Numbered from the stretch's first letter, positions 9,058-61,544 are shown. The stretch is DNA of 64,000 nucleotides from Psammoneis japonica (GCA_008632985.1 QPGO01000020.1:1-64000), one strand, 5' to 3'. A program made the numbers and translations. Notes: generated by a model from the letters alone, not told the origin.

Positions 9058-9990
9058 CAAGCAGTTTTTGGGCTGGTTGGCCCTGTCTGGGGGTGCATCA
9101 CTTTGTCATTTGTGATTTCCATTTTCAACCTGGCAGGGAGCAGGCAACTGGGTGCCAACAACAAGTGCACTGCATGCTGCCATTGCAGCGACCAACCATC
9201 ATTTTTTCAGTGCTCTGGTGGACCCAAGCAGCATTCCAAGTGCCCTTTGCAAGCAGTTGTTGGGTTGGTTTGCCCTGGCTGTCTGGAAGTTGTGCTGACC
9301 AAGTGCCCTCAGCAAACAGTTGTTGGGTTGGCTTGACCTGTCTGGGGGTTTTATCACTTTGTTGTTTGGGATTTGTGGTTCTTCCAGTCTCAGCTTGGTG
9401 CCAGGAGCAGTTGGAATTGTGCCAATGATGCACCATGTCTGCCTTGCAATGCCTGCAACTCTTCCAGTGCATCAGCAGTCCAGCAGACCAATGCAAGACA
9501 CCAAGCACCCTTTTGCAAGCAGCTGTTGGGGAGTGATTGGCCCTGTTTGGGGGTTTCATTGCTTTGCTGTGTTTGGGATTTCCACAGTCTCATCCTGGTG
9601 GGGAGCAGGCAACTCAGTGCCATCAATGCCCCTTGTCATTCTTGCAGTGCTCCAACAGACCAAAGCTGCACACTGAGTGCCTTTTGCAGGCAGTTGTTGG
9701 GCTGAATGGCTCTCTCTACAAGCTTCATCATTTTGCCTCTGGCAAGGCAGGTGTGGTGATGGTTGGCCCTGTTTTAGGGTTTCATGACTTTGCAATTTGG
9801 GATGCCCAGCCCAACCAGCTCCATGTGGGAAACAGGGGACATGGTGCCAGGGAGGCACAACATTGCTCTTTCAGGTCACAACCATCACTGTTCACTGTTC
9901 CAGTCATCCACTGGACCAAGCCAATGTAAAAAGTGCCCCTGGGGTGCAGCTGTTGAATTGGTTGGCCCAGTCTTGAGCTTTTGGGATTTC
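9058..9990. repeat. Degenerate array of irregular direct repeats
   Basis: A recurrent core resembling gcaagcagttgttggg(tt)ggttggccctgt(c/t)tgggggttt..tttgggatt is seen near 9058, 9248, 9312, 9512, 9682, 9761 and 9946. Confidence 0.65.
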
Positions 9991-27600: not shown

Positions 27601-30600
27601 GGTGGTACTTAACCCCCAAATCGAAGCTAAGTCTAGAGGCGTCGATCGCCCGGAAGCATAGTCTTCCAGATCGTTCAAGACTTGAAGCCTCGGAACGAAG
27701 CCCGCTACATCTGTCAATACCGATTCTGGAGTAACAGTATCTTCAATACTTTGCAGAAGACAGCAGCGAGCCCTCATCAAGTTACGTATGCAAGAATCCA
27801 TGTCTTCTTGCATGAGCATCAAGAACACTCCAGTCATAGACTCCGACAATCCACCATACCCAGATTCATCGGAAAGCAACACCTCCAGTTCTTTTGGCAC
27901 TGATGACAAGGCATTCAGAACTGATCGTGACGAAGCTGTAGACGCATTATCCGCAGCTGGAAAGAAAGTTTCGTCCCACTGCAAACGGTGAATACTTCCC
28001 TCGAACCACTTATCACGTAGTTTGAGGCGATCTGAACTTGACAGTTCTTGCAGTACGTCAGTTGCTTGAACTCCTACTACCCCTTCCACGTAAGTCCTCA
28101 TAATGTTCTTCAACCCGAGATCATCCAAACAACCAACTATTTGGGCAGGGGCATATATCTCTGTGTGTCGTATTTAGCATCAACTCTTCGAAGGTGGTCA
28201 AGAGCCGAAGAGACAAGCCCATAAGGCTCGGCCGGAGAAATCTGACTATCCAAAAACTGTAAAGCCGTCTTTTGTATGTCCACCGCTCTAGCGGCATCGT
28301 ACTCTTGGAGCGCACGATAGCACCGTTGCAGTGTCTCACCGAATTCAAGGGCTTCCGTCAGCTTCACTTCGGCTTCACTCTGACCACGGTGCAACGATTC
28401 ATAATCAATTATTTCATTGGAGAGACGTTGGAGGGCCCCCGTGGAGCCAGCGAAAGTATTGTCGGCGTATAGCTCAACGTAAAATAGCGCGCTAGCGTAT
28501 CGCTTAGCACGGATGCAGGCCTTTGCAACTTCCAGACCGTCTAGTTCGAGGAACACACCAAAAGGGACACCGGCCCATTTAGGCGCAGGTTCTATGCCGT
28601 CGTTGTAGGTCAGACTATCTGGTAGAGCGGATTTCGTCGACGATCGGCGAGAGTTTGACTTTGTCTGATTCTGATGCGACCTGCTGGAATGTGCCCGTGG
28701 GTTCTTCTTGTGATGCTTCGATAAGAGGAATTGCTGTTGTGATACGATTCGTAGCATATCCAATGTATTCACTGCCAAGGCGACGGATTTAGCGTTGAAC
28801 TGTAAGCCATCACTACGCACAGCGTCTCGCGATTCAATGAGTTTCGCAAAACAGCTAGAAAGCCTTTGGTAGTCGTTTTCGGCACGGTGAGTGACAACCT
28901 TTCTCTGCAGGCCATGCTCTTGGTCTTTTGCACCGCTGAGCTGGTCAAAGATTATCGCAGGAAATATGGCCGCAGCAAACTCGGGCTCGATAGAGCTCAT
29001 TTTCAAACAGCAATGAAAAAATCCCTTGGAGTTATTCTTCCTCATATAAAAACAGCTGATGAGCGAGCAGACGAGTTTTCGGATCCAGTCTTCATAGGTA
29101 ATAGATTCGTCGTCTTCGAGACTCCATAAACTCTCCTCCAAACACCACGGCAAGGCATCATGATCGACGGATTCTAATGGCGAGAAACTAGAAGCCACAG
29201 ACTCTAGAGAAACAAAGAACTCGTCGATTCGAGTAGCTTTCGCGGCACGAAAAGGTCGCAATAATTGCTTGCATTCGTCACTCTGTAACTGTCTCCACCA
29301 TGAAGATCCAAGATGAGGTTGAAGGAGAGCTTTGATTGTTTCAACAGCAGCGAGCGAGCTATCTATCCTGGGAGACTTCAGGTACTGGGTCAATAGCTCC
29401 ATAGCTTTCGCGTGCACCGACGACAGGAAATTATCACTGCTCAATTCTCGTTTGATTTGTCCGTCACAGTCGTTCAACTCATATTCACAGAAAGAGAGGT
29501 CTTCGACTGCGGAAGGCCTTAGTTCGCCCAGACAGCGACTAGCAGCGTACCTTATGTCTTCCGCTGAACTAGCGCCACATAGCGAGAGCAACTTCGAGCA
29601 AGTACTTCCACCTCCCGATCGTTTGAAGCTGACCCTTCCAAAACATTATTCTTCCTCTGACACCGTAATATTCGACGAAGATCATCCAACTCAGCAAGCA
29701 TAAGGAAAGAGTCAATGCTTTGACGCCGAGAACCAGACTCCGGGTAAGGCAAAGGTGAAGAAGCAGATTTTGGCTGGTGGGTTTCAAATAGGTGCATAGA
29801 GGAGCGAAAAGTAGCGAGGCGTTTGGAAATTGTAGGGATTGAAAATCCTGCGACGTCAGAGCTGCTTTCTGTCACTTCGTTATCCTGGAGAGCGTCTCGC
29901 ATCATTGCCTGAGCATAGAACTTTTTATTCAAGTCCGAAAGACAACGATGATGACTCGATCGCCTCGTAAGCGAATCCCATGATCCAAGCGAGAGGACAT
30001 TTGATGGGACCTGCAGCGATTTGATGTATTCAACTATGAGTTCAAGAACTTCATAAGTTCCTATGATGCTGTCCGTTGTTTCTTTTTTGACTTTTTGCCG
30101 TGTTCAAAGAGTGGCGAATGCGTTTGATCGAAGTAACCATCATCATTTATCGAATCCGAAATCGGCGAAAACGATGTTTCTTTGTCTCTGATGAGGACCA
30201 GCCCAAGACTTCGACGCCTTCTTTCGGTAGAATACGCTTTTGCTTCGGTACACTCCACAACAAAGCTCTTCTGAGATTCCTCGTGGACAAGAAGAAGCGT
30301 GCTTACCAGGCTGAACAAGCTCTGCACCACTTCTTTGTTCATCGTCTTGTTTGAATTCGAGCGAAGGTCGTCTGTGAAAAAAACTTTCATCTTTGACAAG
30401 ACCCGTCCCTTCAATGCTGGCTGCTCAAGAAGAATGTCCAAAATCACGCTAAGAGCGAAGCCTATTTCAGCATCTTCAGCGCCGTCACGAACCTGCGCTG
30501 CTACCAAATCAAATAGCACCTCAAGTACAAGGAAGTATTTCGTTTTCTGTACAGGTAGTACGGCTTCAAAAATCCACGCTCTCGAAAAAAGAATGCATTC

Positions 30601-33600
30601 CGTTACAGTAACACCAAGATTCTCGAAGATAGAACCACCTGACATATCTGTATAATCTTCCTCCGTGTCTTTTGAAAGTTCTATCATCGCATTCACGCAA
30701 GAACTAGAGGAGAACCCACAGACACCAACACTATGCTCGTGCTTCCCACAAAGTTGTAGGATTCGGCGCAAGGCGACGTGCGCCTTTCTCCGTTTGTGCT
30801 TTTCATAAGAACTAACTCCGGACAATGAAGTCTCAACCTTGGCAAGCACAATCGACGCCGTCGCCTTCTCTGAACTGTCTGGTTCATCAGAATGTGCTGA
30901 GGGCGAGAAATACCCAGTTATGTCAGGAAGATGACTCTTAAGCAGCACTTTAACCCCATCGTCATCAGGTTCGATGTTTAGCATATCACAAACTTCGCGA
31001 AGATACTTCCAGCCCCTGTCACATATCCAACTACCGGAGGCCGCCGACGAAGTCTCCTGTGAGGAACTTGAAGCGAAAAGAAGGATCAGAGGGACAATGA
31101 GATGGACATTCCGCATCGTGTACTCGACAGCCGATTCCGCTCTGAGCTGATTTGTGTACAGCTCACCACCACTCTCATCCTGATCGGCGAGCCGAAAGCT
31201 ACGCACTGTAAGGCCTTTACCCATATGAAGTAGTTGCCTTAGCAAACAAGGAGAAGTCATTAGAAGAGGCATAGATGCAAGTTCGGCTTCTTTTTTGAGC
31301 CAAGCGTTAACCAGCCACTCGCATTCATCCTGGAGCATATCTTCTGCGCTCCGAAAGCCGCGAAGGAGGGCAGTCATTTCGCAGGATCGAAAGCAGATAG
31401 CCTCAAGATCAGGTCTTACAGCCGACAGTCTAACAAAGTCAAACAAAATCTCACGAAAAATTTCAAGATCGGAGGTGCATCCTGCGATGAAACCCCTACA
31501 AAAAAGCGAACTGGCTTCGAAGGAGAGGAGCGCGTCGTCCCACACATTGTTCTCGATAGATGTAAGCTTGCCTTGGGAACCAAGATCTTTGTCTTCATAC
31601 CATCGCCTGAAAGCCGACAAAATCTTGCTACGGTTCCTGCTTCTAGTTAGGGGAGGCAACACCGTGAATACACTGTCGACGATCCTTCGTTGGTCTTCAA
31701 GGACACGCAGAGCAGCTCCGACCGCAAAGCACGCATGGAATCGAACTTGCTCGCTGATATCACAGAGGGCAGGAATCACAAATTGAGTCGCGAAGACGTG
31801 GTCGAACTCTCGATGAAAGTTCTCTCGGCCCGAACGAAAAGCTCTCGTTGCGGCATACAGCCTTTTAGCACGGAGTTCGGGGCGTGACTTGAGCGAACGA
31901 CGTTCTGACTTGCTGGTTTCTGCTTTTAGCGTTTCGGTAATGTACCGACAATCGTTCCGACTGAGGGCATTAGTATTCGATTCTCCGATACCGACAATCT
32001 GGAAACACTTCACGAATCCATACAGATGCTGCGCTATTGCTGGACCAGAAGCTGTGCGCATTAAGTTAATCATATCACAGCACAGTGGAACGATGGATTC
32101 TTTGTCGTCATTGTAGCAATAGTGCGAGACTGCCTCGTCTCTGCAGATGAGGTCGAGGCAGAAAATGCCTTGTGCTGGGTCCATCTCCTGTATTGAAATT
32201 CCTCTGTCTGTATGCCTTTCTGTCAAACACGGCCAAAGCAGTGTCTCAGCTACCAATTGGCAAGTCTCGGGAGAAGGTTGAAGGAGAACTGCAATTCCCG
32301 CAAGTTTTCTTGCACAGTCTACGCTGAGAATGGCGTTCCCGGCATCGCCGGAAGTCCCGTGAAACGATGAGTCTCCATCTGATAGCTTGCGTCGAGTATT
32401 CTTGTTTGGTTCCCTACTGCGTTTTCTCTTGTCCCCGACGGAAAAATCACTGTCACTGTCAGTCCCTTGCTTGCGAGGGGGTGTGGAACTGTCTGAATCA
32501 AAATCAGATTCCCGGAAACTACTAGAGGATCGCTGTGTACTTTCCTGTCGCTCGTCATCGCCACCATGGCTTGAATCACCATATGCTGTAAGCAATGAAA
32601 CGCAAATCTCAAACATATCTTGCACTTTCCCGGTGATGACGCGGGGCATTCGAGGGGCATTTTCGGTCGCAAAGAGAGTGGTTAATGCACTCAACAAGCC
32701 ATATACATCATCGAGGACAAAAGGGAGCTCCTCGATGTCAGTTGATGATAAAAAGGGGAGACGTGTGACGACATCATTAAAGATTGGAGCAATCACATCC
32801 GAAAGTATTTTCAGGCGTTCTGGGACTAAAGTATCATCCGTATCATGGGACATGAAGATGCTCAAATATACCTTCAACAAGGACGTGGAGCTAGATAGAC
32901 TACCAGAAAACCCCTCTTCGAAAATATCTTCTGTTGTCTTGCCATCGTCTTTTTCTTTACGAAGCAACTGCCGGACGACCTCCAAAGCAAAGCCTTGAAG
33001 TCCTCCTGATTCATGGCTCGACACCGCGCCAGACCTTTCTTCGGTACTTCGATTTTCCTTGTGCTCCACCATGCTACGAGCTTTCGTGGCAATCAGCATT
33101 GCAACGTCACGCCTCTTTTCAATAGAATTATGAATGGGCTTTTGTAGGGCAGAAAGCCACAAGTCGTCGAAAATACTTTTCGAGCCACGACTACTATCAT
33201 AGATGTCAGAAGTTTGATCTAGCATACCGGTCACACAAAGCCTGTTGTACCGCTCCGATGAAAAGGTGGTTGATAAGCGAACTCCGCAACCCAAAAGAGC
33301 CAAGACACATGCACATGAAGAGTGCAAGATCTGTCGATTTGTTTCCAAATGACTTAATGGCGCCGCGCTCTCAATATTCCTCAAAGCGAAGCGAAGGAGA
33401 CGGGCACGCCGACCTGGATCATTTTCGGGTCGACCTTGTAAGTCCACCGTTTCTGATGAAAGCTTGTATACTCTCACATCAATGCCGTCTTCGCCCTGTT
33501 CAGAGAGCCCTACATGGCGTAACGTCACGTACACGAGATCAAACAACGCTTTCGACTGCACGGAGAGTGCATCGTTGAACGCCGGCAAACCCCACACCTG

Positions 33601-35933
33601 GGCTTGATACACATGTACGAAGGAGGCGTCGCGTGCTCGTTGAATTTTACCTTTCCGTTGCCACCGAATTGACGGATCAGCGCAGAAATTACGTACAATC
33701 TCAGTCAACAGGATAAGAACAAGCTCGCCATTTGAGTTTGAAACGGCATTTTCAGTGTAGGAAGAGTAGCGACAGTCTGATCGCATGATAATATTCCAGA
33801 CGCGTCTCCAAGCAAGACCAATCAAATCCATTGAGCCCGTTTCCCGCATGAATCGTTGGCATATCACCGCAGTGCAATCTGTCAAACGGATGAGACAAAG
33901 CAATGCCCACGATTGCACACTTGAATCCCCGCCATGTCCACCATGAAGTTCTAAGACGTTTGATACGAGATACACCACAAAGGCAATGTCATGTAAAGAG
34001 CAACAGCTACACGAAAGCGTGTCGTTCTCTAGTAAGTCTTCTGGAACATGTGTAATCCAGTTTCTGCTCGTGCTAGTTGACCAGCATTCTCCGTAAGGGA
34101 AAGCCTCAGCAAATGCACAAATTAGACGCAAAGTCATCACCAGATTGACTGACGATAGGTCTTCCGTGGGGTATGATAAATCCTTGAGAATTGGGAACCG
34201 TTGTGAGAGTCTCAAAGATGGATCTCGTCTACCAGATTGGAAATCCTGAGATATATCCTTTTCTGACTGACTGGCAGAAACTGCCTTGTCCACCGAGACA
34301 GTAGGAGATGCTATCAATAGCTTCTTCGCAATCTGACTCATCCAAGGACTTTTCTGAATGTCGGACACCGGTGCTAATGGGGTTGGATCTGTGACGTAAG
34401 GATTGGATGGGTGCTTCATGAAAGAATCTGCGTCGCACTTTTCTCGTGCATTGGAGAGTGTTTTGAAGAGAGAGTCCACAGGATTCTCCATAGCATTCCA
34501 CTCCACTCGGGTAAAATGGAATCGCTGTGCGCATGCCATCAAGCGAGCACAAAGTTCAAGATGTGTCCGCTGACGATCATTGGGCGGCGACCACAGTATC
34601 TGATTATTCGTAGCTACGGAGTGCTGTCGACTGTTCAGCTTTGTTGCCTTCAGTCGAGGCGCATGGCGAACTACAGCTGCGGGTTTCGAAGACGAAAAGA
34701 GTTTCTCGAGCTCCTGCTCTGATGTAGCAAGTAAAAATAGGGACTCAATCTCAGCTTCGTCCATTGAAGCGCTTCCAACGTCGCCCAAATCCCCTGGGAG
34801 CAGTCCTTGTACACGTCCTGCAGTTTGACAGACAGAACTAAATAGAATAGATGTATAACGATGAGCTTACCAAGTTTCAACGACAACGGCTGCGATAGAG
34901 CGCCACTGTTACTTACAGATGAGCCAAAAAGTAATCAATCAACGCAGCCTTGATAAAACCTTGAGTGACCGGAAAACACCTCTTGGCCAACCTAAGCAAA
35001 GGCCGCCCATATTGTATGAAGGGGCCTATTGCTTGTTCTGGATGTGCTATTATCAAGGACGTGGCAGCCCCGTACATGAAGGGTAACGCTTGAGACGGGT
35101 TTCCGCGGGCAGCCATTCGCTGTAAGTGATATTCACACCACTTGGAAACCACCTCGATTCCGCTGGACACCAACATGTGCATGCCTATCCCCAATCTTCC
35201 ACAAGTTTGTAACAGATTAGAAAACGTTTTGGCGGCGGACAAGAATAAATCTGTGACTCCTCCTCCACCTCTGGAACGGTCAGGCGAATATCCAGCTCCG
35301 CGAGGATGTTGTGGATCTCGCCATGCGGTCTGTAGTAGACCACGTAGTCTTCCCTTGAGCACAAATGATGAAGCATGGTCAAAAGATCATTCTCTGCAAC
35401 TGCCACGGCATCTTTGTAAGTACCAATCAGAGGAGGGAGAGCAGGGTGAGAAAATGCCGCTCAAATGCAGCATAAGAAACCGAAGAGAACATGAAGCACA
35501 GACCTTCATCAGCAAGCATATTGAGACAGTACTTGAGAAGATCCAAGATTTCCGCGCTTGACAGCTTTGTTGCGGTAGACTGAGGATCCTCCTCCGAAGT
35601 GTCACAGAGACACAGGAATCGGTATGGCAGCATCACGTCGTATAGCGTAAGCTTTCCTCGACCGCTCGTCGCTTTTTTCGCTGCCATGAGCGCATTTCGA
35701 ACAAGGACACGCCATAGCTGACAAAGAGCCCTCCTCTGCGAAGAAACTCCACGCAAAGACGACGATGCCGATGATGATGGCGTAGCTTCCCTTGCAAGTC
35801 GTGCACGAGTTTTGCTGTGAGCGAGCGACGAAAGAAGATCTTCAGCAACATCGCGCCTCTTCTTGACTTGCGTCTCCGAGCCCAACTGAGAACTCAGACT
35901 GGATATCCGAGAGTACGTCGAAGAACGACTCAT
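24688..35933 (-). CDS. ATM: ATM/Tel1 PIKK serine/threonine kinase (multi-exon; ~4 apparent 1-bp frameshifts)
   Basis: Motifs KQLVKGHDDIRQDAVMEQVF, GIGDRHCSNIL, HIDFG, PETVPFRLTRDIVDGMG and FATC NLCAIFPGWSPWL. Introns at about 35411-35504, 34838-34916 and 25482-25565. Frameshifts near 35250, 30090, 29592 and 28160. Confidence 0.93.
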
Positions 35934-37815: not shown

Positions 37816-38820
37816 CTATAACTGTTTCCACCCGCAATGAATAGCCACAATGCCACAAGACATGTTGCTGTAGGTACAATTATGGAATCCAGCTTTCTCC
37901 ATTCTCGCCACCAGTTCTTCTTGATTCGGGAACTTACGGATACTTTCCACTAGATATTGGTAAGATGGACGATCTCCAGCGACCATTTCTCCCATGTTAG
38001 GAATCACATGAAAGGAGTATGCATCGTAGACTTGCCTAATCATTGGTTGTGGCACATGCGAGAATTCCAAACAAAAGTATCTACCGCCTGGTTTTAAGAC
38101 ACGATGCGCCTCTTTCAACGCCATGTCAACGTCTGTAACATTGCGAAGTCCGAATGCAATCGTGTACAGGTCAAATGAATTGTCATCAAAAGGAAGTTCC
38201 TGGGCATTTCCTTCTTGGAAGTCAAGACCGTGCGACCCTTGCAAAAGCGAAGGTCCGAATCGTTCTTGGGCTCGGTCTCGTCCAACCCTTAACATTTCCG
38301 CGTTAATGTCACAGACGGTGACGCTTACAGGGTCTTCTCCAGATGACTTGGAACGTTCCATGCAATCGGCAGCATCCACCATACGAAAAGCCACGTCACC
38401 GGTACCGCCAGCGACGTCTAGAATCTTGAGTGATACTCGCTCTGAGTTTTGTTTTGCAGACACATTGTGGCGACGAACTGCGCGAGCCATAGGGCCCACT
38501 TTAGTTTCTTCTACCAGCACGTCCTTCCAGCATCGATGCAGTCCACCCGACATGACATCATTCATCACATCATAACTATCAGCGACATTTTCAAAGACTT
38601 GCCTGACTCGACTTTCCTTTTCCTCCGTAGGAACATCTTCAAAGCCAAAGTGTGTTGTGTCGGACGCAGAAGGTACAGTATGATTTTGATATTGACGTTG
38701 TTGGCTGGATAGAGGAGCGCTACTGCTGAAGGCCGATGACCAAAGTTGCTGGTGTCGCAGTCCACACCACTGGAGCTGTTGAGCAATAACAGGACGATTC
38801 GATAGAAGTGCTCGTTTCAT
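37816..38820 (-). CDS. COQ5: 2-methoxy-6-polyprenyl-1,4-benzoquinol methylase (UbiE/COQ5), mitochondrial
   Basis: Motifs THFGF, YDVMNDVMSGGLHRCWK, ILDVAGGTGDVAF, TIAFGLRNVTD and YQYLVESIRKFP. Confidence 0.96.
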   Translation of the reverse strand: MKRALLSNRPVIAQQLQWCGLRHQQLWSSAFSSSAPLSSQQRQYQNHTVPSASDTTHFGFEDVPTEEKESRVRQVFENVADSYDVMNDVMSGGLHRCWKDVLVEETKVGPMARAVRRHNVSAKQNSERVSLKILDVAGGTGDVAFRMVDAADCMERSKSSGEDPVSVTVCDINAEMLRVGRDRAQERFGPSLLQGSHGLDFQEGNAQELPFDDNSFDLYTIAFGLRNVTDVDMALKEAHRVLKPGGRYFCLEFSHVPQPMIRQVYDAYSFHVIPNMGEMVAGDRPSYQYLVESIRKFPNQEELVARMEKAGFHNCTYSNMSCGIVAIHCGWKQL

Positions 38821-39419
38821 ACTTTGCAATCGAACTGCGGCTGCGTCGACGAATCAAGTCTTTTAAGCGAGACCGGGCTATGTACCGAGGGGCGATTTCG
38901 AAGCCCGAAGTCCTCAACAATTATGGTGCCAATGACAAAACAGCAGCAAGAAACGGAACACTGAGCACTGAATCCAATCACAGCGTTGATTTCAAGAGGC
39001 GCAAAGCGGGAAGGAACAGCTTCAAAGCTGAAAGGAGACTTCACGATTTTTTTCCTCAGTTGTTGTGCTCCTTTCCTTTTCGCTGGACGCAAAGTTCCTC
39101 TCAATGATATTGTCCCTCCCAGTGTACAGTAGGGCTACAGTAAAAATGATGTTGTATGCTCGCTGATGCTGAGTGCAACAATGCTTCGCGGTTGTCTTCC
39201 TCCACGTGGAAGCCTCTTGTGTTTGCTGTTTCGCCACTGACGTCATAGTGGAGGGAAAAAACGAAATCAAAATAAAAAAATCAAGAAATCCCTTCTCTTA
39301 GAGGTGAAAGGAAAGCGTTGAAAAGCCGTAGCCCCTGCGATTGAGTTTCACTGTGTTACCGGTAGTTTCGCGTTTCGCCTCATCATTACATTTCACAGCT
39401 TGAATACAGTACGTAAGAT

Positions 39420-42073: not shown

Positions 42074-42523
42074 ACGACTCCCGGGAACAGCAGTGCAATA
42101 CGCCTAAAACAAAACAAAAAAAGATATATCAGGTAACGGGATTTAGTGCTCAAAATCAAAGTCTCAGCACCTGTCTTTGACAAGACTCGATGGGGAACCG
42201 CCACTCCGCGAGAACATGCTGTCTACAAGAAGAGACAAGAAACGCCGCATGATCTGATGAATCATGTTTCGTATTCTCAGCTCTAGTTGTTACAATTGAA
42301 TCTACTCACCTGTTGAGGCGAGGACCTGTTCACCCAGTGGCCAAGCACCGATGCCAAACGCCCGCTTGGTCATTCATCGAGGCGAACCCGCCATTTGCCC
42401 CCCATCCATTGCACGCCGCGGCTGTTGCATGCAAATCGCAGAGAAGCAAACGTAGAACGGTCGACGGCTGGGCGGTAAAATGGTGGACGGACGGACGCAT
42501 AGCGGACGAACGATCAGTCCGTA

Positions 42524-45500
42524 TGGCTTTGTTCATCGTGACGATCCTTTAAGTAGGATTGTACGTAATCTCGTACAAAACGTAAATAGCTCTAAAATGT
42601 TGATAGTAACTAAAAATAGACGTTATATCTTTGTCCCCGTACAAATTCTACAGCGGCTACACGAAATTGAAAAATTCACTCAGCCTCTCGATCTTCGTTC
42701 TCCGCGACGCATCGAACAAACTTGAACTCAAAGTCGATGGCGCAGCGGTGCGTCTTGAACATTTTGACAAGCTTGTCGAGCGCAACGGGTCCAAATTCAT
42801 GGACCCGCTCGGTGTCCTCAACGCATCCATTGTCAATTGCATGGCAAGCCTGAATGCACTGTCGCGCTCTCTTTGCAAACTTGCGCATGCGCTCCAGCGT
42901 CAACACCTCTTCTGACAAGCAACACTCAACTGACTTCTTGAAGTTTTCTTTCCCTCGTTTCTGTGACAGGTTGAGGTTTCGGTGCTCACCTTTGGAGCAT
43001 GCCCAAAGACACTCTGTTCCCTCCCCTGCCAATTCTGCACGGCATTTTGGAGTCAAGATGACTTGCACTCCCATTCGACGCGCACAATGTTGAGCCAGTG
43101 TCATTTCGTTTGCCAAGTCTTTGCAGGAGGCAAGCATCTCTGCGGGCTTGGTGTTTTCCATGCAGCTCCCATGCTCATCCTTTGTCCCCCCTTTTGTGTG
43201 CTTCAGGCTTGCATCAATCAACCCCCTTTCTGTCAAGACTTGCAACAAGCCTTTGGGCTTGCCGCTCCAACCGGGCAACATTTTCTGCACTCTCTTTTTG
43301 GTTGACATGCCGGCATTCTCACAGTCTTTCTGCAGATCCTTCTTTGTGGTGCCCTTCAGAACCACATGGGTTGGATCATTGGCCTTCAAGTCATTTTCTA
43401 ACTCTTCCTTGAGTTTGTCAACAGTCTTCCATTCATCGGTCGGTGTGCCACACTTTCGTCGCACCCGTTCTTCTGGGTCCATCAGGTGAGGTCCCTCGTC
43501 ATCATCCTGAAATGCCATTTCTTGCGTCTCACCACTTTGCATCGTTGAGAATTCTTGTGCTCTCCAATGCATTTGTCTGTGAGGGTGCTGCTTCTCATCT
43601 TGTGTTTTCCACCCCACCCCAGGTTCATCTTGTTGGTCGACAACCCGTCCTCCGCTGCTTCGAATGACCCACCGAGTGGTCAAAAAAAAAGATGTGCTCA
43701 AATTCCGGACACATTTCATCCAGAACATCGACACAGTCTTCCAGCTGCGTCACCATGTGGTTGTAATTCCAACAACCCTCGTTGTTCTGGCCGCACTCGA
43801 ACTTGACCATGAACGGGCTGTTTCCAAATCTTTCTTGGTGGCTGATCCTCAGGCTTCTTTTGCTGCTTCTTCGTCACTGCACTTGGTCCCTTTCCTGTTC
43901 TCATTGATTCGCTTGAGCAATTCTTCCTCGAGCGCTGGGATCAAGCAGAAGTCGCGACATGTGAAAAGCGAGAGCATGACTCCAAGACCTTCGTCCTTCG
44001 GAACAAGAGCGGTCTCGCCATGGGGTCCAACCCAAGCCCTGCTGGTCAATGGGAATTGCTTGAAAATGGCCTCATCTTGTCCCCATAAAATAGCTGGCTT
44101 TTCACCTGCAGGAAACTGACAGCTTAGATGGCCACCACATTGCTTGGCTTTCAAATCGTCGGATTGCGCAATCTCATCACGAAAGCCACTCCAGTCATCG
44201 ACGTGAAACTCCACGAACACGTTCCCGTCTCGAGTGAATAGAGAGCTCTCACCACAAGTTGGAACAAGCGACTGGTTCATGAGATCAGTTGCCTCCTCCA
44301 ATGGAATTTGAGTCCATCTGCAGCGCCGCTTCTCCAACTCGAGATGCTCCTTGTTGAACTTCTTTCGATGCGACTTTGTGGCAGGCTTCTTGTGTCCATC
44401 AACATGAAAGCCTTTGAGCCTGTGCGTGCACTCAAATCCCATAAGACGCATCCAACGGGCTGCTGTTGATGCAGAAAGTGACCTGAGTTTATGCTGTTTA
44501 AGAAACAAACTTTTGGCTTCTTCCTCTTCTGCAGTCGGTTCTCTGGATTCGCCCAACGACTCTGTCACGTTCTCAAAGTCATCATCATCAACTGCCACAA
44601 CATCTTTCTTTGCGTTCAGCATCAGCGCCGGCATGATTTTGTTGTGAACACACTCGTGCATCAGTTCAATGGAGAGGTCCTTCAAGTTCTTGACTCCATG
44701 GCGAACAAATGCATTCTTCACCTCAGGTTTCTGACTGAAGAAGGGCGGCAGTTGCGATTCGCTTCGGTTCCGGCACTGAGGAAAGTGGTCACCTGCCTCA
44801 GCAAGCCACTTGTGCCACCGCTGCACCACCTGCCAATTAGTCATCGCGGTGATGCCATCTTCTTTTAATGAGAAACAGCATGTTGACAGCACTGACCCCA
44901 ACTCATGTTGTCCTTGATCTCCCTTCCTTCACCCTTGAGATTGTCAAGGGCCGCCTGAAGGGATGCCATGATGCAGAGTGCACGATGACGAATGGACACC
45001 TTTTCAAACTCAGTTGCGAGTTTCTTGTCATCCTGGTCAGGCAAAACAGATTTGTGTCCTTGCGGATGATTGACAACAGCAGAAAGAACGTTGATCCTGT
45101 CTTGTATGACCGACTTGACATCTACATCCGCGGGGTAAACCGACATCGGCGCGAAGATGTTGCGTGCTCTCGTCGAATCCCAACAGTTGAAGCGAAGAGC
45201 ATTTTGTTGCCTTGCAGTCTCCAACTCTTCCTCAGACATGTCGTTCCCATTATTTTCACTTTCGATGCATTGTTTCTTCTTGGCTTGTCGGGCCTTTTCT
45301 GCATTCTGGATGTCGGGATCCGTCTCCGAAAACTCTGCCAGCATGTCTGCTCTTCGCACCGAGCCTCTGCCCATTTTCTTTCGGACCGCCCCACTCCTCA
45401 GCCAGCCTTCAACATTTGTCATTGTTGGCGGACGAAGAAACCGACTGGGAACTCCAACAGCAACAAGAAAGAACGTGTGAGGAGCTCTTTTTCCATTGAG

Positions 45501-46004
45501 CTTGCAACTGCACTCTTCTTGTGCAAGCTCACGCCGTTGGCGACAATGTTGTTTTCTGTCGCAACATTGGAAACTCCAGCCACATTTTTGTAAATCTTCT
45601 TTGTTTCTCTGCCCATCACACGAACATTCTCATCGGTTGAACCAAATTTGGCATTGCAACACTCCGCCCAAAGGTCAGTGGACATCCAACAGTTGTGAAA
45701 ACGCTTGTCGCCGAAGACGAGCTGCACGTGCTTGGCAACAAACAATTTTCTGATGTCGGTCATGATGATTTTTTTTGTCAGTGGTTGCAGGGAGCTTTGC
45801 TGATGTGTTTAGAAGGTGGACCGCACAGTGACAAAAAAAGTCATGAGTTTTGGGGAAATTGTGGCCATCATCATCGAGCGACCGCTTGTGTGGCATTTCT
45901 CATGCTTCGTAAACTTCCCTCCAAGAAATGAACTTCAACTTGATGACGTGTCACACCAATTGCGCAGAAATCTGCTTGAAGTTTCATCACAATGAACAAA
46001 GCCA
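42524..46004 (-). mobile_element. IS630/Tc1-mariner-related DNA transposon, 3481 bp, 46-bp imperfect TIRs, TA TSD (right copy now CA)
   Basis: The left TIR TGGCTTTGTTCATCGTGACGATCCTTTAAGTAGGATTGTACGTAAT (42524-42569) matches the reverse complement of 45959-46004. Flanks are TA (42522-23) and CA (46005-06), and a DDE transposase lies inside. Confidence 0.9.
42676..45763 (-). pseudogene. Frameshifted, hypermutated DDE transposase (~1000 codons)
   Basis: Motifs GQDEAIFKQ..W...LVPKDEGLGVM (D1), FFFDHSVGH (D2), GWSGKPKGLLQVLTERG, TPKCRAELAGEGTECLW (E) and KTHRCAIDF, split over 5 ORFs. Confidence 0.88.
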
Positions 46005-46095
46005 CACGTCGGATGAACGACGATGCAATTGCCGGTGCAGTTGTGCTGCAATTTTCTGATGGCATTCTTGTGGCATTTTTACAAAAACAACAACA

Positions 46096-47023
46096 ATGAT
46101 GGCTTCTGGTGACAGCACACTGTCATTGATCGAGCTTGGAGATGACGTCGTTTCTCAAGTGTGCCAGTTTCTCAACATCCGGGTGCTTTGTCATTTTGAG
46201 CAGTCCTGTTGACGTGGTGTTCATTTCACCGCGTGTGCATGGCATCGATTGAGCCAAGACAAAAGTGTGCATGATGAAGAAATCAGCAATGATGCTCCAT
46301 GCATTGGCATTGTGGAACGTCAACATCCTCCTCGGCTCATTTTGTTCTCAATGAAAATGAAACGAGAGGCCGACAAGCATTGTGGCGGTTGTTGGGAAAG
46401 CAACCGTGTTGCAATGAATGTCACTTGTTCTGGCAAATGCAATCTTCCTAAGTTTCTTGATGTTGCAATGCCCTCAGCTTCCCCAGAAAGTTGCCGTTTC
46501 TGCTGCCATCTGTCCCGCTTGGACAAAATTCAAGAGCTGCTCGGTTTCATGTCCTTTGATGTTCTTCCCGCTGCTGAATGGTCCTCATCTCATGGTTGGC
46601 ATCTGCAAGAAGAAGAAGAATTTGAAATGATTCAATCACACAAACTTTCCATTCAGAGCAAACGGTGGAATTCTGGGCTGTTTCAATGCAGCGCAGATGA
46701 TGAAATTGATGTTGCAGACGACAAAAATTTTGCAAACCTCCGCAAGAGGTGATGACACTCGCACTTTGCACCCCTCGCTGCTGCGTGTTGGAACAGAACA
46801 CCTGGACTGGCATGCAGAGCTTCTTGACAAATTGCGCATGTTTTTGGATCCAGCGTTCATGCCAGTTGACACCCATGACAGCGCTCGAAGGTTGGGTGAA
46901 TTGGTTGGATTCGTCTCAAGATCCACAGGGATCAGTTGTGGGCTGGGCCAATTCTTCATCACAAACAATGATTCAACAACATGGCAAATGAGCTCATTGC
47001 ATTTTGCAAGCCCTGATGCTTGA
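46096..47023 (+). pseudogene. F-box protein pseudogene
   Basis: ATG 46096 gives MMASGDSTLSLIELGDDVVSQVCQFLNIRVLCHFEQSC*RG..AWHRL, an F-box pattern. TGA 46210-12 is plausibly an ex-CGA. It continues in frame into ORF 46249..46752 and via a frameshift into 46697..47023. Confidence 0.65.
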
Positions 47024-47755
47024 AATTCCATGTGAAGACAAAGTGCGCCCTTTGATTGACAACACTGCGTCATCGTGGCATGCTGCAGGCTCTCGTTTTG
47101 ACAAGGGACGAAAAGCACACTTGCTTTTTTTGTCATCCTGAACAAATTGCTTTTCTTCATGCCTTGCCACTTCTGCATGATGCACAGTTGATGTTGAGCC
47201 AAGGCACACAATTGCGCTGCCATGTCACATTGGCAGAGTGCCGCAATCATTGCTTTTGTTTCACTCACGAGCTGAAAAAATAGAATGGAAGGCAAGCAGG
47301 CATCATCATGTTTGTGTCATGCATTGGCACAAGCTGGTCCATTGTCTCTCTGTGGAGGCCAGAGCAAAGTTCTCCAATCAACATCATCATTGGCAGACAA
47401 GCATGGAAATGAATTGGTGGCCCGCATCTCCAGGCTGTTGGGGTGCATCAAGGGTGACATCAAGGTCAACTCAAGGTCAACTCAACCGTAACAAACATGC
47501 AATGAGCATGTGACACATGTGGCTTGCCTTGGGGCTCCAGGCTCATTTTGTGCAAAAGCTTGCAGGAGTGCAAATGTGTGACATTGAGAACTGCTTCTTT
47601 TTGCCAAAAATGAAGAAGTTGTTTTGACTGCATTGTGCATCCCCAACAATTTCGTCACCTTCCTTTCTCACAACCAACCACTTGATGTCATGTGGACCAT
47701 TTGATGTTTTGTGGCCAAGAAACTGAAATTGACCACCAAGTCAAAACACATCTCC

Positions 47756-48325
47756 CATGGAGAGCAAGGGATTTTTGATCTTTGTGTGCCCTCATTTTGG
47801 CTCTTCATGAGCACACCTCTCCCGGATTGTTCATCTGCAACATTTCTCTGCAGCTGGTGAATGTTTTGACTTTCCTTGCCACATGTGTGGCATGGGCAAT
47901 GCATGTGCACGCATTTCTTCATGTGTGAAGTTGTCAGTGAACATGCAGGAAATGCCCAAGGAACAAGATGTGTCCTTGTTGTGTGATGGTTGCACACTCA
48001 TGTTGACAGTTGTCATTCTTGCACATCAGTTGGGGAGCATGACAATGTGGTTGTTCATGTGTTTTGTGTGTGTGTCATGCTTGTGCAGACATGTGACATT
48101 TTTTGAAATGTCGTTGACTGACTCTGCAACAAAGATCATTGGTTTTTCCTCTCAAAGCAGGAGCAGGATGAATGGGTTCTTGAGACTGCATCCTTGTGTT
48201 GCAACCATGAGTTAAAACCAGTCTCTCTGTGGAGAGCAAGGTAATTTCAACCTTTGTGCACCCTCAATTTGGCCATTTGCAAGCACCCCTCTCATTGGCT
48301 GTTCCCCCACATTTCTCTGCAGCTG
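47756..48325. repeat. ~100 bp diverged direct repeat (47756-47856, 48229-48325)
   Basis: tggagagcaagg...ctttgtg..ccctca.tttggc...acatttctctgcagctg occurs twice. Confidence 0.6.
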
Positions 48326-49043
48326 AGTGCTTTGACAATTTTTGATCTGTTGCAATGAATCTCAAGAGCTGGCAAAATTCTTGAGAATCCTGGCATGGAA
48401 TCTTGTGAAAATGCATTTTCAAGAATCAGACCTTGTGCAAAAATTCTGGTTGTTGTGAGCAACTGACTCTCTAGAGCCCAGCTTGCCAACTCACAAAAGC
48501 TCTTCCTTCAACACATCCTCTGCTGGATTTTTGTAAATTGGAGGCTGGCCAAAGATGCAGCACCCTTCCCTGTTTACCTCCATGGCCTTTTCACAGTGCT
48601 GCTCTTTGTGCATTTCTGTTTTTCTTTCTGGCCAAGAGGAGCATCTCATTCTTGTTGCTGCTGTCATGCAAGCTGCTGTCCCACCTCCTGGCCAGCCAGA
48701 TGCTGCTGGCACATTGTCAGATCTCCCAAGAAGGTGAGGGTTGTTTTTGTGGAGACCAGACCTTGTGAAGCCTTCAACTTGGCAACCTTTGGCATCAAGG
48801 ACAATGGCCACAATGGCGCCACACTTGAGGTCAACTCCAAGGCAATGCTTGGCTCTGAGTGGGAAATGAACAAGGCACAGGCTGCACAGTTCTAGAAGAC
48901 TGATGGGACCAGGCTGGCTGCTCAACAGCTTTCCAAGCTTTTTGGCAACCAAGCTTGCTCCCAGCAGTGCAGCCACATGATGGAAAGCAACCTCCTTGGG
49001 TTTGCCACATTGCCCCCAATAAAAAAAATGAGGGAGTGGAGCT

Positions 49044-49510
49044 GTGGCATCAAAGTTGATTGTTCTCCATTTCAAGCAGATTTTCAACATCACAGAGTGG
49101 CACCACAAGCACATGCTGGGTGGTCATCTCAAGCTTGTGGCTTGCACACTCAACAACGTTAAGAAAAAATGCAGTGACACCACCAAGATGCCAAGTTCTT
49201 GCCATGGCATTGATCTGTGTCCCATTTGCAGCAGGGCTCAGCTGTGTGCTGTCTGTGGCAAGAGTTCAAGGGGCAAGTGCCCCAATCATGACCAGGAGCA
49301 CCCATGACAACAGGTTCCAGGTGGACTTGGTAGATTGGCTGCTGAAAGAACCTGTGCTCATTTCACCCCAAGGACCTCATGTCCTTGGTCATGATCAAGT
49401 GGCTCATGGCTCTCAAGAGCCACTGCACAAAGTTGCTCTGGATGGCAGCCATTCTCTTCAAGAAGGCCAAGTGGGCTGCCAAGGACTTCTTCACCACATT
49501 TGCTTTTTAA
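49044..49510 (+). pseudogene. Integrase fragment (HHCC zinc finger + rve start), Ginger2/SCAND3-KRBA2-like DNA transposon relic
   Basis: Across frameshifts: FNITEWHHKHMLGGHLK...DLCPIC, PIMTRSTHDNRFQVDLVD and IKWLMALKSHCTKLLWMAAILFKKAKWAAK. Confidence 0.7.
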
Positions 49511-49522
49511 AAACAAAATCAT

Positions 49523-49569
49523 GTTGGTTGGTTGGTTGGTTGGTTGCTGGTTGGTTGGTTGGTTGGTTG
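49523..49569. repeat. (GGTT)n microsatellite
   Basis: gttggttggttggttggttggttgctggttggttggttggttggttg. Confidence 0.95.
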
Positions 49570-50575
49570 ATTGGGTCTGTGGGGATTAGAGCCATGAGAT
49601 TGGTGCCCTCTTGGAACTGTTCCTGGAGGAGAACAAGATGGCCAATGCTGAGACCCATTGTCAACACCAATGGTGACATCAGAGATGGAAGTCTTGCAAA
49701 AGCAACAGGTGCACAAATGCCTCAAGATGTTTCTTTCAAACTTTTCAATGATGCAACGTGTGGGGTTGATTCAAGAAGCAATCTTGATGCTGCAAGCATC
49801 GGATGCTCCCGAGGAGAATCAGATTTTTAGCGGATGAAATTGGGTTGTGCGAACACTTTTGCAAGGACTGACCATGTGATTCACCGCCAAAAACTCGGTT
49901 TCTCGTATGTTTGAAGTTATTTCTTAACTTGAAGGTGAGGGGGGCTGCTAAGTGATGTCTATCTTTTGGAGTGCTGGTCTCCAATAGAATCATTATAGGA
50001 GAACAGTAAATAAAATGTGGAAGCATGACAATGCTCATCGGCGGGTTGGGCGCTCTGCGCTTCTCAGCCAAATGAAAGTCATCTGTTCTGTGAATATCTG
50101 GATAAGTTGTTTCTTAATGAAAGGTGTGCTATGTTTGCGCACCGGCGGAACGACATGTATCGGAGAAGGTTGGCAGAAGTTCGAAGACTTTTGCATCAAA
50201 TTCTTACGCACCACGGGACGGATCAATGGTAGAGCAAAGGGTGTCTCTGGCCAAGCAATTCTGGTATGCTGGAAGCGACGCGTAGCAAACATAGCATCGC
50301 AGTACTCGCCTGATACGTGCCCAGTGTATTGACCACAACGTGACTCTTGATACCGGAATTGCTTCGTACTTCAATCCTTGTCTATTTGCTTGCAGTCTCT
50401 AGAGAGCGTCAACATCTGTCTTTCTGTCTGGCTCTACTATTAACAATTTCGAATGTTCCTTATCTGCTATCAGACGGCAACACCATACCTTGAAAGCAAG
50501 CTTCGCATCAAAAATGAGTACTACCTTCATACTGGTGGCAGCATAAGTTGTCGGGAAGAACCCGACCACCAAATA

Positions 50576-54129: not shown

Positions 54130-56450
54130 GTAGTTGCAGCAAAACTTTTTGAATGAGAGCAAAATTTGCTTTTCACATCATGTGTGTCGCTTTTGTTTGG
54201 CGCGAAAAGTGAGCAGGTTGTTCCTCATGTTTGTAGACTGGCAGTGGCTTCCAGCGAGCCTGTCGGGCGAGAACAGATGGTGGCACCTTTCCTGTCCTTC
54301 TTGTTTTTTGTTTTTCTTTCCCCAACATGCAATGCCACACACAGTGCAATGCGATGGCCAATGAATCTCAGTTGCCTCTCCTCTGTTCTTCAACACACTG
54401 GTGAATGAGGCAACAATGCAGCGATCTGTGCAGTGTTGTCATGGCGGATGATGGAGCGGCAGAAGCAAAGGAAAAAAAATGAGTGGCAACAGGCCATCAG
54501 AGTTTGTTCAGTGTCACTGCAATGTTTTGGGAGTTCATCTGGATGCCACAGTTGCTCAGACCAGCAAGCAATCACTGTCATCCCAGACTTCTTTGATGCC
54601 TGGGAAGGAAATCTGCTTCCCACCTTGACCCGTTTTCTTCAAAAGAGCTGAGCTCTTCAAGCAGTCAATGCACACACACCAACTGTGTCTCTGACTGCAT
54701 GAGCCATTGCTTGTCTCCTTGCCAGCAAGTCAGCTCGATTTGTGGTGTGTGCAGACATGATGTTGCTTGGCTCTGTCAGGTCACTTTTGGCCAGTGTTGA
54801 CCAATTGCAAAGTTTTCTGCATCAATCAGATTGCAATCAGTCGACTGCACTGTGCAGCAACAATTGGCTGATTGCAATCATGAAGCAATTGCATGGTGAG
54901 ATGAACAGATTGCAATCATGATTGCAATTGCCCCACCAGCCAGGCATGCCCCCAATGCAGGGGTGCTCTCTGTGCAAGAGCACACTCTGCACAGGAGAGA
55001 AGCCCACCGCAGGAGAAGAAATTCAAGCCATTTCACTGATTTTAGCTGGAAAAAGAGCTCAAATTTTGATTGCAACAGTCGATTGTGATTGTGACCTTGG
55101 CTCTTGCCCAAGCAGGCCATTGCAATTGAGTTTGCCATGGCAATTGCAGTCAAAGTGAGGCTGACTGCAGTCAACCCCAGCAATTGGTTGACACTGCTTT
55201 TGGCTGCTTGGTGCATGGTGGGTGTTCTTGACTGCTGTCTTATGACCTCCTCATCTCCCCAGATTTGTTTTCTCAAGAAATGCCATTTTTCTTCCACAAA
55301 TGTTTTGTTTCCATCCAGAGAGTTTTGCAGCCAACTGCTTTGGAGCTGAGGTGGCTTGAACAAGCCCCAGTGGTTTTGTTGTTGGTGCTCTTTTGTTGGT
55401 GCTCCATTTTGGCACAGAACACTTGAAAGTCTCTGACAAAAAGTGAGTGCAGCAAATCCACAAAAAATTCACAGATGATCAGTGCTGAAACAGCGCAGGA
55501 TGCATTGAAGACAAGCCCCAGAGCATGGAGCAATGATGAACACCTCAGTGTGGGCCCCAGGCAAGAAAGTGTGCCGTGACATCACCAAGTGCTGCCACCA
55601 TTGTTGCAACAGTTCATTGACATGCACACACAGAACAACGTGCCCAAGCAAAGATTGCCGTGTTGTGCTTTTAGCATTTTCCACTGCAGCAAAAGTTCAA
55701 AGCATGGTGTTTTAAAAAAGGTTGAAATGCACCACAAAAGCAATGAAGGAGCTAAAAGACACAGGAGCCATCCGGGCTCCAGGCTGGAGACACCATGCAC
55801 TTGATTTGCCCTGACCTCTGGGCTGAGCTGGCAGCACCTGCACCGCCGATTTAGACAACACTGCTTCATGTCAGCAAAACAAGCTGCAAAACACCAAACA
55901 AGAGTGAGCACACTGGAGCCAGGGAAGGGCAAGTGTCATCCTGGGGCATTGCAGCACTCAGCACTTGGCGAACAACAAACACTTTGTGCCAGATGACAAG
56001 TTGTGGTTGAAAAACAAGCACAAAAGAAGCAAAGCTTTTTTTTATAGAGATTTTGTGTTTGAGTCAAAACCATTGCCAAATTCATCAATCACTGTCATTT
56101 TTGTGAAGTGTTGCAGAGTCAAAAAGAGAAAAGTGGGTGCTGTGCACTTGATGCAGTTGTGCGAGTGAGGGGGGTGGTTGTTGTGCGCGTGTTTCACCGT
56201 TGTTTGTGCACATGAAATTCGACGAACAGGGTTGACAAGAACAAAGGTTGTTGTCACGTGTGCAGGAAGGCTTGCAAGCCTTTCCATGCAGTGCCATGTC
56301 TTTGTGTGTAGAACATTCGTCGGAATTTGGTGCTTTCCAAATTCTTGCTAATTCACACGTGGCCCTTCCCACAGCTTCCCACGCTCCACATCACGACATT
56401 CACAGCCGGGAACAAGCAAAACGGCCGCCCGCGGTGACGTCTTTGTTATC
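54130..56450. other. TpA-depleted domain 3
   Basis: TA is almost absent. CG is retained mainly near both edges. Confidence 0.85.
54878..56098 (-). pseudogene. Probable decayed multi-pass membrane protein gene
   Basis: Fragmented hydrophobic minus-strand frames (LHALGLVFNASCAVSALIICEFFVDLLHSLFVRDF; LLGLTAVSLTLTAIAMANSIAMA). A possible start MTVIDEF at 56098 lies head-to-head with the PqiA-like gene. Confidence 0.35.
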
Positions 56451-60964: not shown

Positions 60965-61544
60965 TTGATCAAGGTGCGATTGATGGCACCATAAGACGCT
61001 CGGGAGCATTCACGAAATATTGGCAAAAGGATCGACAAAGCAGAAAGATTTTCATAATTTAATCGAGTGATTCAGCATCGTGCCCTCTCTAATGGCCCCA
61101 ATAGAAATGTAGTCGTAGACGACACGGCAAGTGACTGCACCTCCAAGCACGATCAACATTGTAAAGCAAGGAGCTTTAAAATTGCGAGTACAGAGCAGGA
61201 CCGAAAAGGGAGGACTTTCTCTCTCTCTCTCACGGAGGTAACTTATTAGGGATAGTCGGTCGGTGATGAGAGAAAAACTCGCCCTCTCATCCTGATTTTA
61301 CCGGTGCGACACTGGTCATTGGCAGTTGCAAGGACATGCGTTTGGGCACTCTCATGTTTTGTCTCCATTTTGATAGAGAATTGCCGACGCTTAGACTTGG
61401 CTTGAACGCGAAACACATCATGTAAAAATTCGTGTTGAACACATTCAAAATCTCTAATTTAAGTTGACAAAGTACAAGCAGAAGCAGGCACTGATGATGA
61501 GAAAAACCCAACAGCTAAATGCGCCTGCTGGTTGGGCAGCTTAA

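Follow-up and report, generated by a model that had tools for sequence, protein, structure and literature searches.

The window analysed here, a 64,000-nt stretch of the diatom Psammoneis japonica (QPGO01000020.1:1-64000, assembly GCA_008632985.1), consists of gene islands that alternate with four blocks depleted of the dinucleotide TA, and these blocks are without recognisable domains. In one block, a tract of 4612 bp (42659-47270) covers most of a dead DNA transposon (about 42511-46019) together with a neighbouring pseudogene (46096-46915), and in this tract the loss of TA is uncoupled from the loss of CG. TA has fallen almost to the floor of the old blocks, while CG persists at 74% of its density in the gene islands. 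Both dinucleotides have been converted to TG and CA, the summed density of the four is conserved from one compartment of the window to the next, and TA loss reaches saturation before CG loss. We consider it probable that silenced DNA undergoes two separable kinds of mutation, both ending in TG or CA, and that the kind that removes TA is the faster one.

Loss of TA with retention of CG

Blocks were called from 500-bp profiles and from separate two-state hidden Markov models for TA and for CG, with edges reported as raw positions. The gene islands contain 40.5 TA/kb and 56.7 CG/kb, with TG and CA at ~70/kb each, and the observed/expected ratio of CG is ~1. In the block cores TA is reduced to 3.5/kb and CG to 4.0/kb, TG and CA are raised to ~116/kb each, and the G+C content is nearly flat (0.478 in islands and 0.471 in cores). 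Taken block by block, TA density is 3-5/kb in all four blocks, compared to 40/kb in the islands. The tract at 42659-47270 holds 20 TA and 194 CG, corresponding to 4.3 and 42.1/kb, with TG at 95/kb and CA at 94/kb. Its TA density is near the floor of the old blocks (4.3 vs 3.5/kb), and such scarcity is not compatible with the island rate (Poisson P = 6e-55). CG is in large excess over the core rate (P = 1e-118) and is also below the island rate (42 vs 57/kb, P = 6e-5).

The sum of TA, CG, TG, and CA is 238.4/kb in the islands, 235.9/kb in the tract, 238.6/kb in the small fringes described below, and 238.8/kb in the cores. Since a change of TA or CG into TG or CA is a transition that preserves the pyrimidine-purine step, a constant sum is expected, and its constancy across compartments indicates that both losses are conversions to TG or CA. 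A constant pyrimidine-purine total is a prediction of conversion, while selection or a foreign base composition need not produce one. No strand bias of TG versus CA was consistent across the blocks.

The left end of the transposon (42511-42658, 148 bp with ~20 TA) is unmutated, and houses the left terminal inverted repeat (50 nt, 42520-42569). The right terminal inverted repeat (50 nt, 45959-46008) is a mutated copy. The two arms are 76% complementary, form the longest inverted repeat in 42400-50100, and are separated from the reading frame by 110 and 190 bp. Their alignment extends to 42511-42585 against 46019-45944 with a score of 61.5. Shuffling with dinucleotide counts preserved gave at most 53 in 500 trials (mean 30.6), and 250 comparisons with depleted DNA elsewhere in the window gave at most 48.5. 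Between the arms is a dead transposase gene on the minus strand (42679-45766), broken into at least three frames and recognised by tblastn with the proteins P0001, P0002, and P0003. The relic is 34% identical to residues 286-985 of P0001 (990 aa; E = 4e-111), with an additional piece in another frame. Terminal inverted repeats thus flank a transposase gene, as for a DNA transposon, although no target-site duplication was clear when the transposon's sequence was inspected. Pfam searches with the relic and with its intact relatives gave no family. In a protein-atlas look-up P0001 adjoins clusters carrying DDE_3 (PF13358), and this serves only as a lead that the transposase may be DDE_3-like and the element a DDE-type transposon.

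The spared left arm preserves the state of the terminal repeat before mutation. In the complement of the right arm, the five TA of the left arm all read TG or CA and two of its four CG read TG, with five other mismatches in the 50 nt. The pseudogene, which lies outside the transposon on the plus strand, tells of the same changes. It shares 53% identity with the 297-aa protein P0004 (E = 1.7e-53), is not evidently mobile, and is broken by a frameshift near 46745 and by an in-frame TGA (46210-46212) where P0004 has an arginine. This stop is what would be expected from conversion of CGA to TGA by CpG decay. No Pfam match was found for the pseudogene, and an impression of an F-box-like start was not confirmed and was dropped. 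The tract ends ~350 bp past the last aligned codon of the pseudogene.

Codons of the two relics give a second view of both losses. In the main segment of the transposase, none of the 31 aligned tyrosines of P0001 is kept, and these positions now read histidine (9) or cysteine (6) in 15 cases, against a background of 7% for the two residues combined. In the pseudogene none of the 13 tyrosines of P0004 is kept, five of them reading TGY or TGG, so that no tyrosine codon survives at the 44 aligned sites of the tract. Arginine codons have fared differently. Opposite the 45 arginines of P0001 are 11 CGN, 3 AGR, 9 CAN, no TGN, and 22 other codons, and opposite the 19 arginines of P0004 are 9 CGN, one AGG, five decay-type codons (TGA, TGC, TGG, CAT, and CAA), and four others. 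Across both relics 20 CGN codons are kept and at most 14 of 34 have decayed, 14 being a maximum since some changes of arginine to glutamine or histidine may be ordinary divergence.

That the transposon and its neighbour were simply TA-poor by origin, or became so through codon use or selection, is barely credible. TA is indeed under-represented throughout the window, with an observed/expected ratio of ~0.6 even in the islands. Yet of 15 metagenome loci with relatives of the transposase, 14 are of ordinary composition (whole-locus observed/expected ratios of 0.50-0.72 for TA and 0.59-1.10 for CG), and therefore the TA-free state is not native to this transposon family. Homologues keep the tyrosines that are missing from the window copies, the unmutated left repeat arm has TAs that are missing from the right arm, and both reading frames are broken. 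These metagenome relatives are just 31-45% identical to the relic and were rejected as too distant for polarising DNA changes. One of them, L015, contains 6 TA in the 1140 bp of L015:362-1501, with TA-free gaps of 486, 322, and 235 bp and CG at ~45/kb, and has normal TA in positions 1-361; TA-free gaps in the remaining 14 loci are at most 157 bp long. Judged by its composition, L015:362-1501 may be a second, independent tract of lost TA and kept CG, in another organism.

Pace of the two losses

Expressed as e-foldings, the loss in the tract is at least 2.34 for TA, a lower bound since TA is already at the floor, and 0.27 (by density) or 0.53 (by arginine codons) for CG. The per-site rate ratio of TA to CG from these values is at least about 4.4. 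The sequence-only reading that preceded this work had proposed a transposon body nearly free of TA and still rich in CG, and the counts for 42659-47270 bear this out for most of the element, though the unit affected is a domain that spares the leftmost 148 bp of the transposon and adds 1.25 kb beyond its right end. The same reading held that TA conversion is either faster than CpG decay or wider in reach, and is not just a by-product of completed CpG decay. The tract supports a faster change that is no such by-product, with TA at the floor and CG at 74% of its island density, five of five TA but two of four CG altered in the repeats, no tyrosine codons but 20 CGN codons kept, and CG sites that still diverge between copies, as described next; TA is gone where CG loss is only partial.

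Contigs of a public run, X1, provide a comparison for the same DNA. X1 has 76% of the sampled words of 42300-47600 and may be the sample behind the assembly. Its contigs show 101 differences from the window, 98 of them transitions, and 38 of the 40 listed differences fall within the quartet of TA, CG, TG, and CA. Among those listed in the tract, the window has CG and the contig TG or CA at 12 sites, with the reverse at 11 sites; the window has TG or CA and the contig TA at 6 sites, with the reverse at 2 sites; 2 sites have CA in the window and TG in the contig, both letters differing; and 2 sites show other changes. Both directions are about equally frequent, which indicates independent decay in copies or alleles rather than one-sided miscalling. 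When sites with the dinucleotide in either sequence are counted over the listed rows, 8 of 26 TA and 23 of 205 CG differ. A single contig over 45992-47600, with a depth of 62.6 like that of the flanks, differs from the window at 7 letters, of which 5 are of CpG type, one is of TA type, and one is other, in a range that has 45 CG and 4 TA. CpG sites in the CG-kept tract therefore diverge at a far higher rate than the remaining bases, as methylation of these sites would predict, and these comparisons suggest that CpG decay is under way inside 42659-47270.

Outside the tract, the X1 flank contig (record 1, covering 42300-42650) has no differences, while record 2, which crosses the TA boundary (42524-42751), has 15. 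Records 1 and 5 have no differences over 351 and 359 bases, with a word depth of ~55-65. X1 word depth is 231-404 at 42654-43007, compared to 56-63 in the flanks and 65-130 in most of the transposon, so this 3′ part of the transposase gene has a higher copy number than the remainder.

These comparisons also bear on whether the pattern could be an artefact of base modifications miscalled in a long-read assembly, with modified A read as G and 5-methylcytosine (5mC) read as T. Nanopore consensus sequences are known to carry systematic errors at methylated motifs. Still, we regard such an artefact as highly improbable. X1 contigs at the depth of ~55-65 reproduce the TA-free sequence, even if X1 is perhaps not independent of the assembly. 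An artefact would always place the “mutated” letter in the window, and the two-way differences (12 vs 11 CG sites and 2 vs 6 TA sites) thus count against it, as do the frameshifts and the mismatches outside the quartet, which mark the relics as decayed.

The TA that escaped conversion are not a random sample. The 97 TA surviving in the four blocks, compared to island contexts, are enriched 6.2-fold in TTAA and 2.6-fold in CTAA/TTAG, and reach 0.07 of the island expectation in ATAC/GTAT, 0.12 in GTAC, and 0.14 in ATAT. This ranking is consistent with a preference that acts additively per strand and favours T-A ahead of C or T. Residual CG, unlike residual TA, shows little context bias, which hints that the two processes recognise their targets differently.

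This contrast is relevant to a different account, in which one machinery attacks both TA and CG steps with a preference for TA, and the loss of CpG is not due to spontaneous deamination of 5mC. Both losses are found in the same cores, with the same end products and a conserved sum of TA, CG, TG, and CA, and CG-lost DNA is nearly always within TA-lost DNA. Genes for RID-like DNMT4 proteins, whose function is not assigned, are present in 31 of 60 diatoms (PMC9998398). A single machinery seems improbable, though, as TA is saturated throughout a 4.6-kb tract that still has about three quarters of its CG, and decay of methylated CpG is a sufficient and known cause of the second loss. The strong context bias of residual TA, little of which is seen for CG, suggests different recognition, and the hypermutation described in Bigelowiella natans, considered below, hit TpA alone.

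Block 1 contains tandem duplications at 3455-5328 and 12554-14402, with two copies of ~950 bp and three of ~615 bp at ~85% identity. At 12, 4, 4, and 2 sites one copy has CA where the other has TG, double differences that require independent decay of a single ancestral TA or CG after duplication. Three independent pairs of copies have 12 CG-retaining and 4 TA-retaining differences. Ordering the two losses from these repeats was rejected because the numbers are too small.

Edges of the depleted domains

The boundaries of TA loss and CG loss were compared at every block edge within the window. Block 1 is TA-depleted at 995-16194 and CG-depleted at 1471-16179, with CG already absent from 882. Block 2 is TA-depleted at 42659-49905 and CG-depleted from ~47110/47270 to 49756. 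Block 3 is TA-depleted at 54132-56308 and CG-depleted at 54458-56161, and block 4 at 61543-64000 and 61432-64000, respectively. Both dinucleotides are lost in the cores at 1471-16179, whose right edge has no fringe, and at 47271-49756, where CG is at 3.2/kb, as well as in 61543-64000, which lacks a fringe at its left edge and runs off the window end.

Apart from the tract, TA is lost and CG at least partly kept in four small fringes. CG is partly kept at 995-1470 (476 bp, 1 TA, 10 CG) and 54132-54457 (326 bp, 1 TA, 9 CG), and is kept at 49757-49905, the right edge of block 2 (149 bp, 1 TA, 8 CG), and at 56162-56308 (147 bp, no TA, 7 CG). Over the tract and the four fringes, TA is below the island rate in each stretch (P from 0.017 to 6e-55) and CG is above the core rate in each (P from 6e-5 to 1e-118). 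In total 5710 bp (4612 + 1098) have lost TA and kept CG, and the reverse state totals 224 bp. The sole candidates for CG loss with TA kept are 882-994, which is rich in CTAG, and 61432-61542, which is A+T-rich by eye. TA-free gaps of at least 147 bp make up 5 of 1496 in the islands, and therefore the two fringes of 147 and 149 bp are each only moderately significant.

When six edges are pooled (excluding 42659), the inner 150 bp next to the TA boundary contain 33 CG/kb and 2.2 TA/kb, and deeper than 150 bp CG drops to 4-12/kb. Uncertainty in the placement of the edges does not explain the fringe CG, because 24 of the 30 CG of the inner 150 bp sit more than 50 bp from the TA boundary, and the TA-domain edges are sharper than ~50 bp. 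TA is unusually abundant in the 150-bp stretches that border four TA edges from the outside (845-994, 16195-16344, 42509-42658, and 49906-50055), with 10-18 in each stretch and a pooled 61/kb compared to 41/kb further out; the third of these stretches is the transposon's own unmutated end. No shared motif is evident just outside the seven edges.

Much of what the sequence-only reading had said about edges is recovered. Its fringes at ~1000-1470 and ~54130-54460 are present nearly as drawn, and the one placed at ~56150-56450 exists in a narrower form, with TA resuming at 56309, while the fringe at 49757-49905 had escaped it. Its claim that TA loss reaches wider than CG loss agrees with the CG density in the first 150 bp inside the six edges (33/kb, compared to 4-5/kb in cores). 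It had called for observed/expected ratios of TA and CG to be plotted against distance from the domain edges; the boundaries compared here are offset at five of the seven edges and coincide at 16194 and 61543. The rightward fading of CG that it described in block 2 could not be told apart from an abrupt change, since the Bayesian information criterion (BIC) for the CG profile is 1743 with a single step at ~47270, 1747 with a logistic gradient centred on 47022 and 373 bp wide, and 1750 with two steps.

This profile leaves room for a purely spatial uncoupling, with a TA mutator domain wider than the domain of CpG methylation, the tract and fringes unmethylated, and no difference in rate. The single step near 47270 fits as well as the gradient, and the fringes at 49757-49905 and 56162-56308 are at near-island CG (54 and 48/kb) and recur at the edges of otherwise fully decayed blocks. 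We nonetheless find this unlikely as the whole explanation. CpG-type changes are present inside the tract, with two of four CG altered in the repeat arm and with the TGA stop and the TGC and TGG codons at arginine positions of the pseudogene. In the X1 contig over 45992-47600, five of the seven differences are of CpG type, compared to one other difference in ~1600 bases, and CG in the tract is below the island density (42 vs 57/kb, P = 6e-5).

We therefore return to two processes on silenced DNA, with faster loss of TA, against which several observations weigh. At 16194 and 61543, two of the seven edges, there is no fringe and the TA and CG boundaries coincide. Just outside the TA edges, 882-994 has normal TA and no CG (P = 0.002) and 61432-61542 has normal TA and a single CG (P = 0.016), and CG-free gaps as long as ~110 bp are rare in islands (2 of 2089). 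The nesting of CG loss inside TA loss is thus imperfect. In old cores, the residual densities of TA and CG are nearly the same (3.5 and 4.0/kb), which by rough reasoning fits an equilibrium ratio of only 2-3. The estimate of 20-40% CG loss rests on island density, the composition of the relatives, and 34 arginine positions, and changes of arginine to glutamine or lysine also arise in normal protein divergence. Finally, X1 is possibly the source of the assembly, its short contigs are a mixture of alleles and paralogues, and its site classes cover the 40 listed of 101 differences. The factor by which the TA rate exceeds the CG rate is uncertain; its direction, with TA faster, is not.

In the proposed mechanism, a first process would convert TpA to TpG or CpA, that is, A to G on either strand, and would be fast and saturating. 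Its domain edges are proposed to track the silenced region and not the ends of the mobile element. The TA step may be enzymatic deamination of adenine in a T-A context, a preference like that of ADAT/TadA enzymes. The second process would be ordinary decay of CpG to TpG or CpA, most likely through deamination of 5mC and thus presumably driven by methylation. It would act in the same domains at a rate at least ~4 times slower per site, and only weakly in the outermost ~150 bp. The tract at 42659-47270 may then be a comparatively recent addition to the older, decayed block at 47271-49756, in which TA is gone and CpG decay would be 20-40% complete and still running.

The position of the transposon provides some insight on how such a domain may be set. 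It sits between two gene starts, that of a GT64 glycosyltransferase gene (42103, minus strand) and that of the pseudogene (46096, plus strand). The TA boundary at 42659 falls 148 bp inside the element, and the tract extends 1.25 kb past its right end. The spared left end faces the GT64 promoter, and the domain takes in the pseudogene on the opposite side, towards the old block; both suggest a domain set by a silenced chromatin state. An edge that cuts through the transposon likewise argues for targeting of a chromatin domain over targeting by sequence homology. We infer that chromatin defines the TA-lost domain.

We favour both forms of uncoupling, with TA loss probably preceding CG loss in time in the 4.6-kb tract, and outreaching it in space in the ~150-bp fringes. 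More tentatively, and with doubt prevailing, TpA editing could be a first and fast step of genome defence, aimed by chromatin and not by repeat homology, that precedes CpG decay, reaches about one nucleosome further, and sterilises a new element together with a neighbouring gene. If so, tracts that have lost TA and kept CG would be a built-in clock that dates silencing events. Should the ordering hold genome-wide, the TA mutator would be a process of its own rather than a side effect of methylation decay, it would disable the transposon and the neighbouring gene before much CpG erosion, and silencing could be dated from the extent of TA loss relative to that of CG loss. Targeting of a domain rather than homology would also narrow the search for the machinery.

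The genes of the islands, in which neither change is seen, include those for a TPR protein, ribosomal protein S11/S17, a large PI3K-related kinase, COQ5, the GT64 glycosyltransferase, and a WD40 protein. The gene for the PI3K-related kinase (24691-34866, minus strand) has FAT, kinase, and FATC domains in several long open frames, and its TA and CG are normal across the whole length. The COQ5-type methyltransferase gene (37819-38853, minus strand) has named best matches that are all from diatoms, at 57-71% identity, for example Cylindrotheca, Fistulifera, Cyclotella, Nitzschia, Skeletonema, and Thalassiosira.

Comparison with known systems

A loss of TA-containing words to CA and TG is known from bacteria. 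In E. coli, biased very-short-patch repair depletes CTAG in favour of CCAG and CTGG. This is a precedent for such a loss through the machinery that handles 5mC deamination, but by analogy only, as it is bacterial, concerns one motif, and acts genome-wide, unlike the changes seen here.

Repeat-induced point mutation (RIP) of ascomycete fungi introduces dense C-to-T transitions, mostly at CpA, which creates TpA, and its target is defined by duplication. The window resembles RIP, which is mentioned in a diatom methylation study (PMC9998398), in its dense transitions in mobile or duplicated DNA, in the killing of reading frames, and in the spill into neighbouring sequence. The chemistry is the opposite, however, since TpA is destroyed here rather than created. 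The edge also cuts the transposon and spares its left 148 bp, which a homology-defined target does not predict. X1 depth is raised at 42654-43007, as duplication of the target might suggest, yet the tract omits 148 bp of the element and adds 1.25 kb.

Decay of methylated CpG in transposons is the closest counterpart to the slower loss. As in such decay, CG is converted to TG or CA in transposon-derived, gene-free blocks and is kept in the islands, and the replacement is plain in the densities, with CG at 4.0/kb in cores and 56.7/kb in islands and TG and CA at 116/kb each in cores. In the diatom Phaeodactylum, 5mC occurs only in transposons and requires DNMT5a (PMC9998398; PMC12344493). CpG decay does not explain the removal of TA, and here it lags behind it.

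For the faster loss, full-text searches covering the main texts of the papers accessible to us found no account of TpA erasure in the repeats of diatoms, nor of whether it comes before or after CpG loss, and the one published counterpart in the literature searched is a 2026 preprint on B. natans. This preprint describes hypermutation of TpA to TpG or CpA in integrated giant-virus and virophage DNA, at a rate of ~6e-7 per site per generation. Of the new mutations recorded in two viral inserts, 210 of 211 and 20 of 20 were A-to-G or T-to-C changes, and every one of these fell on TpA (Mettrop et al., bioRxiv 10.64898/2026.01.13.699255). Its text contains neither “CpG” nor “diatom”. The two cases share the change of TpA to TpG or CpA on either strand, its confinement to stretches that do not resemble the host, and a long-term depletion of TpA alongside enrichment of CpA and TpG. 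In the window, the restriction of the first process to TpA transitions is seen in the five of five TA of the repeat, the absence of any kept tyrosine, the conserved sum of the quartet, and the eight TA-type X1 differences in the tract, and its regional confinement is seen in island genes that are untouched up to edges sharper than ~50 bp.

The differences lie in the host and the targets, with a chlorarachniophyte and viral inserts there and a diatom, a DNA transposon, and a pseudogene here. Erasure in the window is near-complete, sharp-edged, and co-occurs with the loss of CpG. The B. natans rate comes from de novo mutations, while the evidence here is indirect, with 38 of 40 listed X1 differences in the quartet. 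The new part is the relation of TA loss to CpG decay, which that text does not treat. A signature known in one rhizarian alga is thereby extended to diatoms, a major phytoplankton group.

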